From positions 425 through 64,424 of the forward strand of contig JABDKO010000027.1 of assembly GCA_013002165.1 (NCBI GenBank): 64,000 bases of DNA. Direction: 5' to 3'. Source of the stretch: Rhodothermales bacterium (GTDB taxonomy: Bacteria; Bacteroidota; Rhodothermia; Rhodothermales; JABDKH01). The notes under the pieces are model-generated. The model was not told where the DNA came from and did no database searches. It saw only the letters and a program-made list of their open reading frames with translations. A program made the position numbers and the translations under genes. Each line of letters opens with the position of its first letter. The stretch's first letter is position 1. Of this stretch, positions 6,550 to 23,773 are shown piece by piece.

Positions 6550-8127
6550 ATGACCTCGCCTCACGGATCAGGTAGCGGAATCATGAACGGCCCTCTGGAC
6601 ACTCATTACGGCAAGCACGGTGTGCCAGACGACCAGGATACATTTCTTGCGCTGCAAAAGAACCTTGTTCGCCAATTTGAGGCTGTATTTCCCCATGCAC
6701 TGCTGCCTCGCACGGTGGTTGTAATTCCCAGTCTGAGCCTGGACCGAAAGGAACTGGAAAAGATTGAAGGCGCTCATCATTATGAGGAGCGACTCTTGTG
6801 CTTGTTGATGCTCCTGAGGCTGCCACGGACACGTATCATCTACGTCACGAGTCAGCCAATTGCGGCGACTGTTATTGACTACTACCTGAGCCTGCTGCCG
6901 GGGGTGCCCATGTCGCATGCGCGAAGTCGACTCTGCATGTTGACATGCCACGATGCATCGATGGTGCCACTGACGCAGAAGATACTCGACCGCCCGCGCC
7001 TGCTGAGTTCGATCAGGGACGAGCTGAGCGGACAGGAGTATGCGCACATGACGTGTTTTAACGCGACTACACTCGAGCGTAGTCTTGCACTGGCATTGGG
7101 AATTCCAATCTACGCAGCTGATCCGGCATTGAACCATTACGGAACGAAGAGTGGAAGCCGTGAGATCTTCAAGGAAGCGGGAATTGATGTTCCACCGGGA
7201 TTTGAAAACATCCGGGATCGGCAGGATATTTTTGATGCAATAGCTGAACTGAAGGGATTGGATCCCCAACTCCGAAAGGTGGTAATCAAACTCAACGATG
7301 GCTTCTCGGGTGAGGGTAACGCTGTTTTCTCACTCGAAGACTGCCCGAATGACAACTCCGCGGGTGCGTGGGTTCGCAAGAACCTGCCCCGCTCAATCCG
7401 TTTCGAAGCTAAAACGGAAACCTGGGAGGCATTCATCGCGAAATTTGGATCGATGGGTGGAATCGTTGAGACGTTTGTCGAGGGAAAGAATAAGCAATCG
7501 CCATCGGCGCAGTGTCGAATCGACCCGTTGGGCAATGCTGTGCCCATTTCAACGCACGACCAGGTGCTCGGTGGACCGTCCGGCCAGGTGTTTCTTGGAT
7601 GTACATTTCCTGCTGTGCCGGACTACCGACTGGAAATACAATTAGCTGGAATGCGCGTGGCAGAAATTCTCAAGGACCGTGGCGTCGTGGGGCGATTTGG
7701 AGTCGACTTCATTTCAGTACCACAGCAGAACGGCTCCTGGAAACACTACGCCATCGAAATCAACCTCCGGAAGGGCGGGACAACACACCCGTTCTTGATG
7801 CTGCAGTTCCTTATCGATGGATTCTACGACGAGGATACCGGTCGGTACTACACGCCGTCGCTGAAAGAACGATTCTACTATGCATCTGACAATCTGAAGC
7901 AAGAATCGTACAAGGGTTTACTACCTGCTGACCTGATTGATATTGCCGTGTATCATGATCTTCACTTTCACGGAGCGACACAACAGGGTGTAGTCTTTCA
8001 CCTGATCGGCGCCCTGTCAGAGTACGGGAAACTCGGTGTCCTGTGCATCGGAGACAGTCCGACGAAGGCTCGCGAACTCTACGATCACACCGTCGAAGTC
8101 CTCGATGCCGAGACCAGGGATGATTGA
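6550..8127 (+). CDS. ATP-grasp family carboxylate-amine / peptide ligase, PGM1-related type (probable)
   Basis: 525 aa. The central and C-terminal text is ATP-grasp-like (VVIKLNDGFSGEGN, GVDFISV...YAIEINLRKGGTTHP). The long N-terminal region resembles the pre-ATP-grasp domain of PGM1-like ligases. Assignment is from memory, not searched. Confidence 0.6.
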   Translation: MTSPHGSGSGIMNGPLDTHYGKHGVPDDQDTFLALQKNLVRQFEAVFPHALLPRTVVVIPSLSLDRKELEKIEGAHHYEERLLCLLMLLRLPRTRIIYVTSQPIAATVIDYYLSLLPGVPMSHARSRLCMLTCHDASMVPLTQKILDRPRLLSSIRDELSGQEYAHMTCFNATTLERSLALALGIPIYAADPALNHYGTKSGSREIFKEAGIDVPPGFENIRDRQDIFDAIAELKGLDPQLRKVVIKLNDGFSGEGNAVFSLEDCPNDNSAGAWVRKNLPRSIRFEAKTETWEAFIAKFGSMGGIVETFVEGKNKQSPSAQCRIDPLGNAVPISTHDQVLGGPSGQVFLGCTFPAVPDYRLEIQLAGMRVAEILKDRGVVGRFGVDFISVPQQNGSWKHYAIEINLRKGGTTHPFLMLQFLIDGFYDEDTGRYYTPSLKERFYYASDNLKQESYKGLLPADLIDIAVYHDLHFHGATQQGVVFHLIGALSEYGKLGVLCIGDSPTKARELYDHTVEVLDAETRDD

Positions 8128-14516: not shown

Positions 14517-14521
14517 TTGTG

Positions 14522-14593
14522 CTCCCCGGGTAGGACTTGAACCTACAACCCTGCGGTTAACAGCCGCATGCTCTACCATTGAGCTACCGAGGA
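14522..14593 (-). tRNA. tRNA-Asn (anticodon GTT), CCA not encoded
   Basis: Hand-folded cloverleaf of 72 nt. Acceptor stem TCCTCGG/CCGGGGA, D arm GCTC-AATGGTA-GAGC, anticodon arm TGCGG-CTGTTAA-CCGCA, variable loop GGGTT, T arm GTAGG-TTCAAGT-CCTAC, discriminator G. Confidence 0.95.
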
Positions 14594-16899: not shown

Positions 16900-17358
16900 C
16901 TACGAACCAGCCGTGACTCTGCCGAATATACTTGCCTCGCCATCTTTTCCGATTGCGATGACGTCGTAGTCCACCGGATTAGGTCCTTCCATACCCGGAG
17001 ACCCCTGAGGCATTCCGGGTACTGTAATGCCCTTGATGTCCGGCTTCTCTTCGAGCAGTTTTGTTATAAACTCGGCAGGAACGTGCCCTTCAACAAAATA
17101 GCCATCAACAATTGCTGTGTGGCACGACTGTGCCTGTCGTTGAATACCATGCTGCATTTTGATCGGCTGCATATCGTTGGTATCCCGAACTTGCACTTTG
17201 TATCCGGCTTCCTCTATATGGTCAATCCACTTGGCACAGCATCCACATGTGGGTGACTTGTACACAACGATTTCCTGTGAACTGCTGGTGCTGGTAAAGA
17301 CGAATGCCCCCGCACCGATAACTACGGCGATCAGCCCTGCTAGCAACGGTTTACTCAT
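16900..17358 (-). CDS. DUF411 / CopG-like periplasmic metal-binding protein
   Basis: 152 aa. YKSPTCGCCAKWIDHIEEAGY...CHTAIVDGYFVEGHVP...GMPQGSPGME is the conserved DUF411 text. It lies directly downstream of the multicopper oxidase. Confidence 0.85.
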   Translation of the reverse strand: MSKPLLAGLIAVVIGAGAFVFTSTSSSQEIVVYKSPTCGCCAKWIDHIEEAGYKVQVRDTNDMQPIKMQHGIQRQAQSCHTAIVDGYFVEGHVPAEFITKLLEEKPDIKGITVPGMPQGSPGMEGPNPVDYDVIAIGKDGEASIFGRVTAGS

Positions 17359-17425
17359 AATATCCCTTTTTTTAGAGTTAATCCTGTGCCTACGAAAACA
17401 TCACGATGTGGTTCTCAACAGGCGT

Positions 17426-19129
17426 TTAATTGCTGCCGCGGGGGCCTTCATCGACAGAAAACTTCAGCATCATACCAGCATGCAGGTGCTCAGCGATATG
17501 GCAGTGCATCATCCAATCACCGGGATTTGTAACATCGATCAGCAGATCAATGGTCGAACCAACCGGAATAATGACAGTGTCCTTCCAGACCATGTTCTCA
17601 GGTCTGACGCCGTCTATTGCGGTGATCAGGAAGCGCTGCCCGTGAACATGGAAAGGATGGTTCATCGGATGAAATGATCGCGGCTCGTTGAAAATCCGCA
17701 ACTTCACCAAATCTCCGGTGGAGAAATTCCAATCGATGTTCATGTTCTCGTTTCCGGTATCCGAATCCTTCAGAATCCAGGTGACCTCTTTGCCCGTCGC
17801 CAGCCAGTTCATCATCGGCATGGCATCGTTCCATTCGATCGGAGGCACATACAACGTATCAATTTCCATCGATTGCATGATGGATGTATGTAAACCTTTC
17901 ACTTTGAGTGTAAGCTCCAGTCGATGATCGACGGGTTTGTCAAAGTACTTTTCGAATGATGCTACATCAGCCTGCACGTCCGTGTGTTCGCGCAGGACAT
18001 CAAAATCTGTTTCAAGGTCGCCGGCAGGTTCGTCGGTTACATCAACTGTAACCAGAGTATCTACATGTGGATAAAACTCGCCACGGAAATGATTAATCGC
18101 CTGGATTGTATTTGCAATGTGAACCGTTCCGGCTTGATTAAAACGGACATCGACGATATACCTTTCTGCAGGAGCAATTGGTACACTTGAGATCCACTGT
18201 TCGCGCTCGTACCTGCTTACGTCCGACCCTACAACTTTTACATCCGCATTGCCGAATGTCACATTGAAGGTCCGGGAATTTGCGACGTTGGTGAGATAGA
18301 ATCGAACGACTTCTCCAGCCTTTGTGCTCAATCTATAATCCGGTGAACCGTTAGCCAGCATCACATTTCCGAAACGACCCATGAGCGCGTTCGTCGGCGC
18401 TGTCGCACCGAAAGGAATCAGGCCGAGATCGTCCATTAGGATGTCATCAAGGATCAATACCTCTTCCCGGTGCACTGATCCGTAGTAGTCGTCATTGGGA
18501 GGATCGACGAGCAGATTTCCGTAGAGCCCCAGATCCTGCTGCAGGTCTTCCCTCATATGAGGATGATACCAGTAGATGCCGGCATCCGGAAGTTTGATCT
18601 CGTAGAGGAACGACTCGCCATTTTCGACTGGTGCCTGGGTTATTCCCGGGATCCCGTCGAAGGCATTGTCAATACGTATACCGTGCCAGTGGACGGTGGT
18701 TGGCATTTCAATGTTGTTTACAAAGTCGACATAGATTCGCGCATCGCGCGTTGAACGAATCATCGGGCCCGGGTACTGGCCATTGTAGCCCATCATCACA
18801 AAGTCCTTACCCTCTATTGTTCGCCGGACCAGCATGGCTTCGATCCGGACGGTATCTCCATCTGCCACGGTCATCACTTCGGAAGGGACGGCTTTCGGGA
18901 AATGAGAGACGTTGTGACCGGCTCCGGGAAGAAAGGCTTCTACTGAAGGCACGGCGTCATGCAGTCCCGGTAGCATTGGCATCGACATATCCATTGGCGG
19001 CATCCTCCACTCGTCGACAGCCTGCTCGCCCATGTTCATATTGTGTCCCTCGTGCTGCGCGTATGCTGCAGGCACACTGACAACGATGGCTACTGCAACG
19101 AGCCACATCCTCTTCACAACTCCTGTCAT
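17426..19129 (-). CDS. Multicopper oxidase (CopA/CueO-like), Met/His-rich N-terminal region
   Basis: Copper-ligand motifs HWHGIRI, WYHPH, HPFHVHG and HCHIAEHLHAGMM. Met-rich segment HEGHNMNMGEQAVDEWRMPPMDMSMPMLPG. Start ATG 19129 (MTGVVKRMWLVAVAIVVSVPAAYA) is preferred, because the ORF-track start 19192 overlaps the upstream gene. Confidence 0.9.
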   Translation of the reverse strand: MTGVVKRMWLVAVAIVVSVPAAYAQHEGHNMNMGEQAVDEWRMPPMDMSMPMLPGLHDAVPSVEAFLPGAGHNVSHFPKAVPSEVMTVADGDTVRIEAMLVRRTIEGKDFVMMGYNGQYPGPMIRSTRDARIYVDFVNNIEMPTTVHWHGIRIDNAFDGIPGITQAPVENGESFLYEIKLPDAGIYWYHPHMREDLQQDLGLYGNLLVDPPNDDYYGSVHREEVLILDDILMDDLGLIPFGATAPTNALMGRFGNVMLANGSPDYRLSTKAGEVVRFYLTNVANSRTFNVTFGNADVKVVGSDVSRYEREQWISSVPIAPAERYIVDVRFNQAGTVHIANTIQAINHFRGEFYPHVDTLVTVDVTDEPAGDLETDFDVLREHTDVQADVASFEKYFDKPVDHRLELTLKVKGLHTSIMQSMEIDTLYVPPIEWNDAMPMMNWLATGKEVTWILKDSDTGNENMNIDWNFSTGDLVKLRIFNEPRSFHPMNHPFHVHGQRFLITAIDGVRPENMVWKDTVIIPVGSTIDLLIDVTNPGDWMMHCHIAEHLHAGMMLKFSVDEGPRGSN

Positions 19130-19145
19130 CTTTCCTCTACTTGAT

Positions 19146-19706
19146 CTACTGGTACCCAAACGTCGCACACGGTTCTTGCTGAAAGGGACCATGTCCCGCC
19201 ATCGTATGCATAAGACCGCTGCGCGACATGCCGCGATACCCTACAGGTCCATTCCACCGCGTCGCGTCTGACTGACCTTCATCTTCCAGCGAGACGACTA
19301 CAAGGAACTTGTTCCAGCTTACCCGACCTTCAACGGTGCCGTCATCACCTATTGCGCCTACTCTTGTCACGGTTGCAAGGTCAGGAGTTGTCAGCCAGAC
19401 AACAAATTCTTTCCCGTCAAACACGGGCAAGTTTGAAAACGCCACCTTTAGACGGTACTGGTAGTTGCCATTTTCGCCGACGCTGACTCCGAATGGTGAA
19501 GGCTGATATAGCATATCGCCAAAGCCGGTTGCTGCCCTGACCCGGGGGATACTGCGCGTTGGCACAAGATCGATCCGGTAGTATCGAGGTGGGTCATCAT
19601 CCACTACGCATTCACCGGCAGCTGCCGGAGCGGGAGGAATTGAGAATCCAGACGCCACGACAACGCCGAGCAACACCACAACAAGCGAATTCAGTACAGA
19701 TCTCAT
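19146..19706 (-). CDS. Hypothetical secreted protein with C-terminal Met/His motif (possible Cu-binding); core resembles the anti-sigma-K RskA C-terminal-like fold
   Basis: Start ATG 19706 gives the signal peptide MRSVLNSLVVVLLGVVVASG. FVVWLTTPD...GAIGDDG...VVVSLEDEG...GPV follows the RskA-C-like pattern (weak, from memory). The C-terminus is GMSRSGLMHTMAGHGPFQQEPC. Confidence 0.5.
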   Translation of the reverse strand: MRSVLNSLVVVLLGVVVASGFSIPPAPAAAGECVVDDDPPRYYRIDLVPTRSIPRVRAATGFGDMLYQPSPFGVSVGENGNYQYRLKVAFSNLPVFDGKEFVVWLTTPDLATVTRVGAIGDDGTVEGRVSWNKFLVVVSLEDEGQSDATRWNGPVGYRGMSRSGLMHTMAGHGPFQQEPCATFGYQ

Positions 19707-19711
19707 ATCAA

Positions 19712-21031
19712 TCAGTTTGAAGCTGGCCCCGTATCCCATTTCTGTGCGCTGGATACATCAGGAACCCCCCAATCGGTTCCTCTCCATCCCTGGAAACCAT
19801 CCATTTTGAATGTCCAGAATCCCGTCGACATATCGCTCACGACGATGAGGCCGTCTGCGTTGCGTACATCGACGCCAAACGCGCCATTGAACATTGGATA
19901 CCGATCCGTATTGGGAGGGCCGATATACGTGTCGTAGTAAGCAACGGTCACAGGATCTGTAGGATCCGCAAGACTGAAAACCTGTAGTCCATCCAGGTAT
20001 CCGCTCACGAAGACATACGGCCAGCGTACCTCGTGATTATGCGTGAGATTCCGCCAATCCGCCGTCCAGGCACCGATCGGATTTCTGATATTCGTGACTT
20101 CTCCATCCAGAGCAGGCTTCAAATCAAAGATTCGGAGAGGAGCATACTGGTACTCAGTCTCTGCGACCGCGAATCTGCCATCTGGCGTAGGCGTGAAGGT
20201 GTGTCCGCTCGTGACACCGGATATTCCGGTCAACGTTGCAAGCAATTCGGGTGAATCCAGATTCGTGAAGTCATACACAAAATATCCGCCCCGACCACCA
20301 CCATAGAAACGGTCCTGGCCTGTTTCTTCATGATAGCCGGCATAGAAATCATGATATCCCCTGCGACCGTCTTCAGAGTTCGGCACTGGAATCTGTCCTA
20401 CCCGGGCATCGTCCATGTTGCCCTCTACGATCGCACCGAGGTCATATACCTGGGCAAACGCATTTGAGACTGTTGCGAGCAGAAGCACCTTTCCGCTGGA
20501 ATGCTTGTAGATATAAATGTTGTGGAATCCTCCGGGCATTTCAGGTTCACGTATCCGGGCGACCTCTTTTACCGTGCCGGGATCGGGCAGGCCGGATACG
20601 TCTAGCACAACCGCTCCCAAATCCGGATTAGGACCGCCCTGTCTGAACTGCAGCGACTGGACAACATAGTATTTGTCTTTCCATTTAAAGTGCTTGACAT
20701 CCATCCCTCCGGTGCCGAGATGCAGGTCCTGATTCTCAATCCGCCAACGATAAATAATCTTTGGCTTTGCCGGATCCGAGATATCAATCATATCGGTTCC
20801 TCGCGGACCTTCCGTGCCGTAGACCATCCGGGAGACATAGGCATACGGACGGTCGAGTTCCTGTTCGACATCCATATCGGCAACGCTTAGACGAGGTCCT
20901 AGTGGAATGTGACCAAGGACCGTAATGTTGTCACTCCCCGGTTTTTCCGCCGTCCATTGAGCCTGCACGTTCTGTGCAGCGACAATCATTAGTATCAGTG
21001 CTAATACAGGTATTACGTTTCTGCCAGTCAT
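19712..21031 (-). CDS. LVIVD-repeat (COG5276-like) secreted beta-propeller protein, paralog 1
   Basis: Start ATG 21031 gives the signal peptide MTGRNVIPVLALILMIVAAQNVQA. Repeat text: GTDMIDISDPAKPKII, GGYFVYDFTNLDSPELL, LQVFSLADPTDPVTV, ADGLIVVSDMSTGFW. Strongly similar to paralog 2. Confidence 0.65.
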   Translation of the reverse strand: MTGRNVIPVLALILMIVAAQNVQAQWTAEKPGSDNITVLGHIPLGPRLSVADMDVEQELDRPYAYVSRMVYGTEGPRGTDMIDISDPAKPKIIYRWRIENQDLHLGTGGMDVKHFKWKDKYYVVQSLQFRQGGPNPDLGAVVLDVSGLPDPGTVKEVARIREPEMPGGFHNIYIYKHSSGKVLLLATVSNAFAQVYDLGAIVEGNMDDARVGQIPVPNSEDGRRGYHDFYAGYHEETGQDRFYGGGRGGYFVYDFTNLDSPELLATLTGISGVTSGHTFTPTPDGRFAVAETEYQYAPLRIFDLKPALDGEVTNIRNPIGAWTADWRNLTHNHEVRWPYVFVSGYLDGLQVFSLADPTDPVTVAYYDTYIGPPNTDRYPMFNGAFGVDVRNADGLIVVSDMSTGFWTFKMDGFQGWRGTDWGVPDVSSAQKWDTGPASN

Positions 21032-21060
21032 GATGTACTGCGTTTTTCTAGTGAGAATCT

Positions 21061-22452
21061 TTACTTGTTTGATGGTCCGTTCTCCCAATCCTGGGCGCTC
21101 GACACATCGGGCACGCCGAAGGCCTCGCCGGACCAACCATTAAATCCGTCCATCTTCAGCGCCCAGAATCCGGTGGTCATATCGCTGACTACAATCAGAC
21201 CATCTGCATTCCTGACATCCACACCCCATGCTCCGTTGTAAATGCCCCACGTGTATGGACTGTTGATTCGACGAGCCTCACGATCGTTATGGGGTCCGTC
21301 GTACGTATCGTAGTATGCGACCGTATATGGCCGGGTTGGATCTTCCATCGAAAAGACGGATAGCCCGGTCTCATATCCTGATACAAACACATACGGCCAC
21401 CGAACTTCGTGGTTATGAGCCAGCGTCTTCCAGTCAGAATGCCACACCCCAATGGCGTGGTCAATGTTGTCCACTTCTCCATCAAGTGCCGGTTTCAGAT
21501 CAAAAATTCGGAGAGGCTGGTACTGCCACTCGGTCTCGCCGATGGCATACCGGCCATCAGGAGTCGGTGTAAACGTGTGTCCCCAGCGTACCCCTGGCAC
21601 GCCAAGTATGGTAACGAGAACTTCAGGTTCGGCGAGGTCGGTGATGTTAAACACATAGTAGCCTGAGCCACCGCCTCCATAGAAACGATCTTGTCCGGTC
21701 TCCTGGTGGTAACCGACGTAGAAATCGTGATATCCACGCGACCACATGTCCTCTGACTGGGGAACCGGGATGCGGCCAACCAGAGCACGGTTCTCGTTCT
21801 CGACGCGCTGCTCGATCTCGGTCTCAGACTGGTTCACTACGATGTCCAGATCGAACACTTTCGAATATTGGCCGGATGTCGCAAACAGAAGCGGTTTCCC
21901 TGTCGAGTGCTTGTATACAAAAATATTGTGGAATCCGCCCGGGGTATCTGATTGTGATATCCGCTCGACTTCGAAGACCTTCGACTGATCCGGAAGTCCG
22001 GTGACATCGAAGACAATTGCGCCGACATTCGCGTTCGGACTTCCCTGCCTGAACTGAAAAGACTGCACAAAGTAGTTGCGACCTTCGTGTGCAAAGTAGC
22101 GACCATCCATGGCGCCGCCCTGGTGCAGTTCAGGGTTCTCGATCCGCCATTTGTAGATCACTTTTGCATTGGAAGGATCTTCCAGATCAATGACATCAAA
22201 ACCGATTTCACCGCCGCGGCGAGCGACATATGCGTACGGCCGGTCCATGTTCTGCTCGATATCAACGTCTGCGATTGTCAGTGCCTCCCCAAGGGGAATA
22301 TGCGAAAGCACTTTCATGTTTGCGCTGCCCCTCTCGCCCGGAGGTGGTGGGTGGGACGGAGTTTCAATCTTTTGCGTCTGTCCTGCTGCCGATGTTGTCA
22401 CGAAAATCAGGGTCGCGAGTAACAGCGTTATGTCTCTGGCGTAAATGTTCAT
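21061..22452 (-). CDS. LVIVD-repeat secreted beta-propeller protein, paralog 2
   Basis: Start ATG 22452 gives the signal peptide MNIYARDITLLLATLIFVTTSAAG. It shares long identical blocks with paralog 1: GYHDFY.GYH.ETGQDRFYGGG, GHTFTPTPDGR, PLRIFDLKPALDGEV, HNHEVRWPYVFVSGY, GVDVRNADGLIVVSDM, GVPDVSSAQ. Confidence 0.65.
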   Translation of the reverse strand: MNIYARDITLLLATLIFVTTSAAGQTQKIETPSHPPPPGERGSANMKVLSHIPLGEALTIADVDIEQNMDRPYAYVARRGGEIGFDVIDLEDPSNAKVIYKWRIENPELHQGGAMDGRYFAHEGRNYFVQSFQFRQGSPNANVGAIVFDVTGLPDQSKVFEVERISQSDTPGGFHNIFVYKHSTGKPLLFATSGQYSKVFDLDIVVNQSETEIEQRVENENRALVGRIPVPQSEDMWSRGYHDFYVGYHQETGQDRFYGGGGSGYYVFNITDLAEPEVLVTILGVPGVRWGHTFTPTPDGRYAIGETEWQYQPLRIFDLKPALDGEVDNIDHAIGVWHSDWKTLAHNHEVRWPYVFVSGYETGLSVFSMEDPTRPYTVAYYDTYDGPHNDREARRINSPYTWGIYNGAWGVDVRNADGLIVVSDMTTGFWALKMDGFNGWSGEAFGVPDVSSAQDWENGPSNK

Positions 22453-22456
22453 CACT

Positions 22457-23773
22457 CTATCCACCGATTTCGTCCGGTCCGTTTTCCCAGTCCTGGACTG
22501 TTGATACATCTGGAATACCCCACCCGTGACCATCCCATCCCTTGAAGTCTTCTACACGTAGCAGCCATATTCCCGTTTCAAGATCTCCAACCGCAATAAG
22601 ACCATCGCGGTTGCGCACTTCCACATCGTATGCACCGCGGTGACCCGCGTTAGGATCGCAGTCGGTCTCGATCGTATTTGTACGAGCATATGCAGATGTG
22701 TACGGATTCTCATGATCTCGCATGTTGACCATTTGAAAACCGTCTTCCATTGAGGCTACAAATGCATAGGGCCACCGAAATTCAAACTGCTGCGCGAAAT
22801 TGCACCAATTTGCGGTCCAGGCACCAACAGCTGTCCGGATACGAGGAGCGTTGCCGTCAAAGACTGGCCGGAGGTCGTAAAACCTGAGCGGTGCAGTTCT
22901 GTAATCCGCCGCTGTCAGGACACCATTGCCGTTTGGTTCAGGCACTACCTTGTGTCCGTAAAGGATTCCTGCAGGATTGACCATTGCAAGAAGAGAGTCA
23001 CTGACTGGATTGGTGACATCATAAACATAATATCCTCCTGCACCAGCCGTGTACATTCGATCCTGACCAAGCGCCGGTTCGAAGCCGACAAAGACATCTC
23101 GAAATCCACGTAGCGAGGCAACGGGTTGCGCGGGACTGTCGATCGTAGCCACCAGGGCCGTATTTGCATCACCCTGAACCAGTGCATCCAGATCGTAGAC
23201 GTGAATTGCTGCGTCACCAGCCGTAAAAAGTAGTGCCTTCCCGGATGAATGCTTGTATGGAAACAGGTGTATAAATCCCGAACCCTCAAATGTTGTAATA
23301 CGCCGTACCTCGCGTGGTCCTGTCTCCCCGATTCTATAGATCACTGCAGCAACAGAGTTGCTCCGGGGCTCGGAGTGCTCGACTGCAACCACTGCATACC
23401 ATGCTCCGGCGGTATAAAATAATTTCACGTCCCTGCTTCGGGAAGTCGCCGGCAGGTCAGCGATGACCGCTGATGCAACGAGCTCGATGTCGCCGTCTGT
23501 CCTGATTCGATATGTGTCGACACCCTGACCATTTACCGACGGAGATGCCAGCAAGAGCGGCTGGTCTGGATCTTCTGACAGTGCCAGGTATAACGTACGG
23601 TCAAACTGACCGTCCTGTGCATCGACTGTGCGCTGAATCAGGCCTTCTACGGTTACGTTTCGAGTCGCCTGGATATCCTGGGCATGCAGCGCACTCGTGC
23701 CAGCGAATAGAAAGAGGAGTGTCAACGCCACAGCGGGCGAAATACGGATACGAGTCACAAATATTACCTGCAT
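22457..23773 (-). CDS. LVIVD-repeat secreted beta-propeller protein, divergent paralog 3
   Basis: Signal peptide MQVIFVTRIRISPAVALTLLFLFAGTSALHA. Collinear with paralogs 1 and 2 (PYKHSSGKALLF, GQDRMYTAGAGGYYVYDVTN, PLRFYDLRPVFDG, FRWPYAFV, DVEVRNRDGLIAVGDLETGIW, GIPDVSTVQDWENGP). Several His residues conserved in 1 and 2 are replaced. Confidence 0.6.
   Translation of the reverse strand: MQVIFVTRIRISPAVALTLLFLFAGTSALHAQDIQATRNVTVEGLIQRTVDAQDGQFDRTLYLALSEDPDQPLLLASPSVNGQGVDTYRIRTDGDIELVASAVIADLPATSRSRDVKLFYTAGAWYAVVAVEHSEPRSNSVAAVIYRIGETGPREVRRITTFEGSGFIHLFPYKHSSGKALLFTAGDAAIHVYDLDALVQGDANTALVATIDSPAQPVASLRGFRDVFVGFEPALGQDRMYTAGAGGYYVYDVTNPVSDSLLAMVNPAGILYGHKVVPEPNGNGVLTAADYRTAPLRFYDLRPVFDGNAPRIRTAVGAWTANWCNFAQQFEFRWPYAFVASMEDGFQMVNMRDHENPYTSAYARTNTIETDCDPNAGHRGAYDVEVRNRDGLIAVGDLETGIWLLRVEDFKGWDGHGWGIPDVSTVQDWENGPDEIGG

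Follow-up and report, generated by a model that had tools for sequence, protein, structure and literature searches.

The secreted seven-bladed beta-propeller Sb-PTE, a phosphotriesterase (haloalkylphosphorus hydrolase) of Sphingobium sp. TCM1 (5hrm), has a binuclear metal centre on its channel axis, made of two Mn with His and Glu ligands. TcDH (5F75) and the CuZ domain of NosZ are periplasmic seven-bladed propellers that carry copper clusters on about seven His residues, roughly one per blade; for TcDH, H135, H136, H206, H381, H437, H482 and H528 are described together with K103, E288 and D314, and its genes are flanked by copper-handling genes (PMC6504805). Among operons built around a multicopper oxidase (MCO), cutFOG of Rhodobacter capsulatus encodes CutF, a protein of <170 aa with a central CxxxC and a C-terminal PP motif, followed by the MCO CutO and the CopG-like CutG (PMC8456105). 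Here we describe a locus in which beta-propeller genes adjoin an MCO gene. It lies in a Rhodothermales metagenome-assembled genome, in a stretch of 64,000 nucleotides (contig JABDKO010000027.1) that we refer to as the window.

The locus occupies positions 16900-23773 of the window on the minus strand and consists of six co-directional open reading frames (ORFs) in the order P3, P2, P1, S186, MCO and DUF411, where P1 to P3 are propeller paralogs and S186 is a small exported protein. The gaps along the run measure 4, 29, 5, 13 and 67 nt, and reading of the translations by eye shows a hydrophobic, signal-like segment at the start of all six; both the 4-67 nt spacing and the signal-like N-termini had been put forward in an initial annotation made from the letters, and both hold. 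The six gene lengths match the gene calls of two close relatives and the deposited proteins P0001, P0121 and P0379 (HKN43_ locus tags). The parts belong to known superfamilies, while the combination of propeller, S186 and MCO genes, the propeller family with its ring of histidines and the S186 family are uncharacterised. Our literature searches found no description of a propeller-S186-MCO module, nothing that joins LVIVD with multicopper oxidases (LVIVD alone gave surface-protein speculation only), nothing useful on COG5276 or choice-of-anchor B, and nothing relevant on operons of MCO and beta-propeller genes.

The propeller-S186-MCO module

When one genome per species was scanned, >587 loci were confirmed, of which the best 79 were taken for analysis. 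Because long antisense ORFs of high-GC loci distorted an initial ORF clustering of the neighbours, all locus counts given here use coordinates anchored by tblastn. In the anchored loci a P1-like propeller gene is followed on the same strand by an S186 homologue and then by an MCO orthologue. Synteny was counted in the 71 species-level loci with enough downstream DNA, which come from Rhodothermales, Acidobacteriota and Gemmatimonadota: S186 stands beside the propeller in 67 of them and the MCO in 66, and two independent look-ups returned the same arrangement. The adjacency of propeller and MCO genes, noticed in the initial annotation, is thus not a peculiarity of this genome and extends over three phyla. 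No further gene family recurs around the module in the 79 loci beyond lineage-specific synteny.

The other three genes of the window locus are more restricted. The P3-P2-P1 triplet and the P2-type copies occur only in Rhodothermales/Bacteroidota loci, and in the two closest relatives all six genes are laid out as in the window, with the same proBA synteny upstream. DUF411 follows the MCO only in the window and in these two relatives, and tblastn found it in none of the 79 other module loci. The conserved gene order and the restricted occurrence of P2, P3 and DUF411 speak for a core of propeller, S186 and MCO, to which the three other genes are lineage-specific additions. Within the same loci identity is 67-81% for the propellers, compared with 55-66% for the MCO and 38-57% for S186, which makes the propeller the most constrained component; this fits a tightly constrained enzyme.

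S186 (19146-19706, minus strand, 186 aa) is encoded directly upstream of the MCO. The initial annotation had passed over this fourth gene as a bystander, a view that does not survive its presence in most loci and its fusion to an MCO in four genomes. About 1,000 homologues were found. Their C-terminal segment, RGMSRSGLMHTMAGHGPFxxEPC, and Cys33 are almost invariant; the two cysteines of S186, C33 and C180, are far apart, and a C-terminal PP is absent. The spacing MxxM/MxxH/HxM in the predicted helix is similar to that of Cu(I)/Ag(I)-binding motifs. The structural model (pLDDT 88.9) shows a beta-sandwich followed by short helices. A fold search against the PDB gave no significant match, only generic Ig-like sandwiches with a best E of 0.018. 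The protein is weakly RskA_C-like: it scores 12.5 bits (E 0.18) against PF10099, for which the gathering score is 29.4 bits, and a few homologues bear a precomputed PF10099 match.

In the four genomes mentioned, a paralogous MCO begins with an S186-like domain (34% identity, E 5e-16) that is joined to it in frame, at L059:3700-6100, L071:1735-4257, L075:3749-6334 and L081:3750-6100, all on the minus strand. The fused-type MCO paralog is about 49% identical to the window MCO, and its gene lies divergently, about 2 kb upstream of a propeller-S186-MCO module; no propeller gene belongs to the fusion paralogs themselves. These fusions argue for a physical association of S186 with the MCO. In L071 and L075, the two loci whose intervening ORFs were read, a gene for a PhoD-like phosphatase with a Tat signal lies between the fusion gene and the module.

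The gap between the S186 and MCO genes is an insertion hot spot in Gemmatimonadota. It holds an MT-A70-like methyltransferase gene with an adjacent nuclease-like ORF, PIN/VapC toxin genes, or the gene of an NHL-like lipoprotein with a RelE/ParE-like gene (L045:10301-11477, L054:9973-11137, L049:9733-10410, L044:8311-8697, L058:10260-10646, L057:9921-11812, L060:10768-12708, L062:2669-3973 and L063:13712-14959). These genes were considered as extra components of the module and ruled out, as they are of mobile type (methyltransferase, PIN, RelE/ParE).

The MCO (17426-19132, minus strand, 568 aa) is a three-domain, laccase-type enzyme. Its identification in the initial annotation is confirmed by the Pfam domains Cu-oxidase_3, Cu-oxidase and Cu-oxidase_2, which score 110, 50 and 98 bits, all above their cutoffs. 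All four Cu-ligand motifs (HWH, HPH, HxxHxH and HCHxxxHxxxxM) are present and conserved in 68 orthologues. Near the N-terminus a conserved segment rich in Met and His has WRMPPMxxxMPMLPG as its end. The protein stays far below the NCBIfam equivalog cutoffs for CueO (143 vs 525 bits) and for copper_res_A, that is CopA/PcoA (129 vs 479 bits); among solved structures, bacterial laccases and cuprous oxidases come closest to it, including CueO and the MCOs of Thermus and Campylobacter.

The last gene of the run, DUF411 (16900-17358, minus strand, 152 aa), encodes a DUF411/CopG-like protein, as had been proposed: PF04214 matches with 95.5 bits against a cutoff of 27, and the translation shows both the CxCC motif (TCGCC) and the motif GMPxGSPGM. 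Pairing of the MCO with DUF411 is not characteristic of the system: DUF411 is missing from all 79 other loci. In one close relative (L083:12361-15912, minus strand), the gene right after DUF411 encodes a protein of 1183 aa with Prok-E2, ThiF (E1), JAB and patatin domains, a Cap2-like fusion of the defence type; nothing of the kind stands at the equivalent place of the window.

Conserved residues and predicted structure of the propellers

P1 (19712-21031, minus strand, 439 aa) is the core propeller; it has a Sec-type signal with a single Arg and no twin-arginine motif, and contains no Cys. P2 (21061-22452, minus strand; 463 aa counted from MNIYARD) is 61% identical to P1 over the full length, and P3 (22457-23773, minus strand, 438 aa), the distal copy, which also starts with a signal peptide, is 37% identical; judged by sequence comparison, the similarity among the three is far above chance. 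More than 2,800 homologues of P1 were found, the best 120 of which are 72-81% identical and come from Rhodothermales, Acidobacteriota and other phyla. The His-rich blocks quoted in the initial annotation (FHNI, GYHDFY.GYH, GHTFTPTPDGR and HNHEVRWPY) were recovered from both P1 and P2 in our alignment, and P3 has GFRDVFVGFE and AQQFEFRWPY in place of such blocks.

The family label given at the time, "LVIVD-type", fares less well. None of P1, P2 and P3 matches the Pfam model LVIVD (PF08309), even at E<=10. Against the NCBIfam model TIGR04312 (choice-of-anchor B, cutoff 100 bits), P1 reaches 51.4 and P2 44.6 bits, about half the cutoff and over the last ~100 residues only, and P3 does not match. 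PF08309 is matched at E<=0.01 by 18 of 89 diverse members of the propeller family (best 1.7e-5), and some homologues carry the name "LVIVD repeat-containing protein". Together, these results place the propellers at the edge of the LVIVD superfamily and not inside the family; the label describes a loose superfamily resemblance and not a family assignment.

Thirteen residues, in P1 numbering H41, D52, H104, H170, H177, H227, H234, H277, E291, E293, H331, H333 and E334, form a signature that is intact in 80 of 81 propellers adjoining S186 in the genome loci. In an alignment of 89 sequences, positions 41, 104, 170, 177, 227, 277, 331 and 333 are His without exception in the subgroup whose identity to P1 is 55% or more, and H234 is conserved there at 89%. 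The wider family, in which conservation of the His positions had been set in advance as a test, keeps His at all nine positions in 163 of 250 full-length members.

Every P2-type copy in the genome loci keeps the 13-residue signature, as P2 of the window does. Every distal third copy in the Rhodothermales loci has lost most of it, so that essentially H177 alone remains; across the nine His positions P3 of the window reads LPIHREHQF. All propeller copies, the degenerate ones included, retain the residues that define the fold as well as the W/G-rich tail at the C-terminus. The early suggestion of a His-marked site that two copies retain and the third has lost is upheld by these loci. Loss of a whole set of polar residues with retention of the scaffold is the pattern usual for a pseudo-enzyme derived from a metalloenzyme, and P3 is probably a non-catalytic or scaffolding paralog. 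Two Rhodothermales genomes (L013:3654-8807 and L046:4885-10851) have propeller genes in a tandem array of four, of which three encode the full signature and the other is degenerate, which shows that the number of paralogs varies within Rhodothermales.

The AlphaFold2 model of P1, made from the 89-sequence alignment (pLDDT 94.4, pTM 0.91), has 28 strands in seven blades of four strands each; the N-terminal strand closes the propeller, which spans residues 36-410. For the blade register, the "hhhhD" strand was taken as the third strand of each blade. In this model the first, innermost strand begins one or two residues after H104 in blade 2, H170 in blade 3, H277 in blade 5 and H331 in blade 6, and its second residue is H227 in blade 4 and H333 in blade 6. 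H41, D52, E291, E293, Y296, Y345 and D367 are on neighbouring strands and in loops of the top face, and H177 and H234 are at the opposite end of the central channel. In propellers the innermost strands start where the central channel opens at the top, so that the placement of the histidines suggests a ring of at least six His at the channel mouth. We infer a multi-His metal site there, with its position derived from secondary structure and topology and not from coordinates.

A Foldseek search of the PDB with the P1 model returned Sb-PTE (5hrm) at the top, with E 4e-11 and TM 0.62, followed by generic WD40 propellers. The profile of the propeller family matched only 5hrm/5ioj among PDB sequences (E 0.0035), over about 27 residues of the repeat-strand motif.

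Possible roles of the module

Tentatively, and at somewhat less than an even chance, we favour a metalloenzyme role for the propeller, with a multi-His centre, probably of multinuclear copper, and with functional coupling to a dedicated MCO, S186 being the copper relay or adaptor. The active site would be formed by the invariant His ring, with one residue per blade on blades 2-6, together with H41, D52 and three Glu at the channel mouth, and this ring would most likely hold a multinuclear copper centre. The invariant Met/His helix of S186 may relay copper or dock the partners, and the laccase-type MCO would pass to O2 the electrons that the reaction at the propeller (or Cu(I)) supplies. In the Rhodothermales lineage of the window, the module would then have been expanded by a second propeller of the catalytic type (P2), the degenerate P3 and the CopG-like protein. 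It is from the surroundings that we infer copper for the propeller, namely from the MCO in 66 of 71 loci, the LMHTMAGHG stretch of S186, the Met/His-rich N-terminus of the MCO and the CopG-like gene in this lineage. A more far-reaching version of the proposal, which we regard as rather doubtful, is that the propeller represents a previously unrecognised class of multinuclear-copper enzyme, CuZ/TcDH-like in function and unrelated to these in sequence, which together with the RskA_C-like adaptor and the MCO as terminal oxidase makes up a self-contained periplasmic substrate:O2 oxidoreductase. Such an oxidoreductase would act on a small compound, inorganic or organic, such as a sulfur or nitrogen species, or else on a metal ion.

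Several observations weigh against the favoured view. The nearest solved fold, Sb-PTE, uses Mn and not Cu. The signature includes the carboxylates D52, E291, E293 and E334, and carboxylate ligands are typical of Mn, Fe and Zn sites. No known copper propeller appears to be related in sequence: NosZ and TcDH chains of the PDB were not matched at E<=10, either by the single sequence or by the family profile, and neither protein is among the top 50 fold matches of the P1 model. The clustering of the histidines in P1 is deduced from topology. No redox partner besides the MCO and no clue to a substrate is conserved near the module in the 79 loci, and an MCO of this type may be no more than a cuprous oxidase.

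An alternative that we consider unlikely is a cutFOG-type operon for copper detoxification or homeostasis, with the MCO as cuprous oxidase, DUF411 as CutG/CopG, S186 as a CutF-like periplasmic Cu(I) chaperone for maturation of the MCO or for substrate delivery, and propellers whose histidines serve to bind Cu(II) or to sequester it. The last three genes of the window do mirror cutF-cutO-cutG, with a small Sec-exported protein, an MCO and a CopG-like protein (PMC8456105), Met/His-rich motifs occur in both S186 and the MCO N-terminus, and cuprous oxidases are among the nearest solved relatives of the MCO. This explanation sits badly with the absence of DUF411 from all 79 other loci, with an S186 that lacks the CxxxC and C-terminal PP motifs of CutF, and with 67-81% identity across phyla and a maintained degenerate paralog, both of which are atypical of a metal sponge. 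Nor are the expected companions in place. A Pfam scan of 30 other ORFs of the window turned up peptidases, genes of his and pro biosynthesis, a Na/Pi transporter and other functions of this kind, and no P-type ATPase, RND pump, CopB/C/D, MerR or two-component regulator. Canonical cop/pco/cus genes (CopB/PcoB, CopC/D, P-type ATPase, CusABC, CopRS/CueR) are found neither among these ORFs nor among the recurrent neighbour families of the 79 loci, where no Cu-responsive regulator is conserved either; the locus is not a canonical cop/pco locus, just as the initial annotation had concluded. The structural match to Sb-PTE suggests a different chemistry, which we hold to be quite unlikely: the propeller could be a non-copper, binuclear (Mn/Zn/Fe) hydrolase or lyase whose product, for example a released phenol or some other reduced compound, is then oxidised by the laccase-type MCO, in a two-step pathway and not in an electron-transfer complex. 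Sb-PTE is the best and the sole non-generic structural match, the weak sequence link at E 0.0035 points to the same protein, the signature mixes His with Asp and Glu, and the MCO is indeed laccase-like. However, seven to nine invariant His exceed what a binuclear hydrolase needs, the sequence similarity is limited to the repeat-strand motif and lies outside the ligand positions, and no role is left for the Met/His-rich tail of S186 or for the S186-MCO fusion.

If the oxidase is taken as the centre of the system, the propeller and S186 might be non-catalytic accessory subunits of an MCO holo-complex, comparable to MnxE/MnxF with MnxG, which present a metal substrate such as Mn(II) or Fe(II) or stabilise the enzyme. 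Tight co-inheritance of the three genes, the S186-MCO fusion in four genomes and the W/G-rich C-terminal tail, which is kept even in the degenerate P3 and suggests a docking surface, would all suit such a complex. We nevertheless judge it improbable, because the fused S186-MCO paralogs do without a propeller gene of their own and because the propeller is more conserved than the MCO that it would merely assist. That the propellers are generic LVIVD-type proteins of the cell surface or of adhesion, without a functional link to the oxidase, seems hardly credible. LVIVD proteins are reportedly surface proteins, and the names of some homologues and the 18 of 89 family members with a Pfam LVIVD match are in line with this. 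Synteny with S186 and the MCO at 93%, an invariant signature of polar residues, the lack of any match of the window propellers to the LVIVD model, and the architecture of the propellers, compact single-domain proteins of about 440 aa without anchor domains, all speak against it.

If the propeller is a new metal-cluster enzyme, the module defines an unstudied periplasmic oxidation reaction and would constitute a third type of MCO partnership beside MnxEFG and CutFOG. Its carriers are thousands of environmental bacteria from phyla that dominate soils, sediments and sponge microbiomes, and under the proposal of a new class of copper enzyme the system would occur widely in Rhodothermales, Gemmatimonadota and Acidobacteriota of the sea, of sponges and of soil. 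The pairing of a catalytic-type with a degenerate paralog offers a natural case for the study of pseudo-enzyme origin. The system is directly testable, since a cultured bacterium, Rubrivirga sp. IMCC43871 (CP177355.1), carries the module.

As to the rest of the window, the GC content is even throughout, which gives no sign of a recent insertion. A scan for promoters and terminators found fewer sites than in shuffled sequences, so that it is uninformative for this phylum. The sole Rfam match in the window is a tRNA-Asn (anticodon GTT; 14521-14593, minus strand), also found by ARAGORN, between the genes for an FtsX-type permease and an M1-like peptidase. An ORF of 1008 aa (38067-41093, minus strand) joins APH phosphotransferase, Peptidase_M23 and class-III aminotransferase domains in an unusual fusion, and one of 525 aa (6550-8127, plus strand), unrelated to the module, combines an IQCH-like ATP-grasp domain with a PGM1 C-terminal domain.

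Comparison with known systems

With the families that lent the propellers their first label (PF08309, TIGR04312, COG5276), they share repeat architecture at the level of the superfamily, and neither PF08309 nor TIGR04312 implies a function. The His-rich propeller also brought lactonase-type / clade III NosZ into consideration; it was rejected, given the lack of Cys, of a cupredoxin domain and of any sequence link to NosZ, and the different host taxa and neighbours.

The resemblance to cutFOG lies in the arrangement of genes, with a small Sec-exported protein directly before the MCO and a CxCC CopG-like protein directly after it. It ends with the propeller, for which cutFOG has no gene, and with CopG, which the module lacks in the 79 other loci. 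At 186 aa, with a beta-sandwich and with neither CxxxC nor a C-terminal PP, S186 is not a CutF homologue. Sb-PTE is comparable as a secreted seven-bladed propeller with LVIVD-like "hhhhD" third strands; it differs in that identity is only 15-16% and in having neither an MCO nor an S186 partner.

TcDH and the CuZ domain of NosZ are resembled in another respect, as the modelled P1 appears to have a comparable blade-periodic series of His (H104, H170, H227, H277 and H331/H333) accompanied by D, E and K residues. Unlike them, P1 bears a signal of the Sec and not of the Tat type and contains neither Cys nor a cupredoxin domain; it also lacks nosDFYL, copCD and cus neighbours, and its partner is an MCO and not a cytochrome c. 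Sequence similarity to either protein, the C-terminal cupredoxin CuA domain with Cys ligands of NosZ and the Tat signal of TcDH are all absent from P1, which on these counts is excluded from both families.

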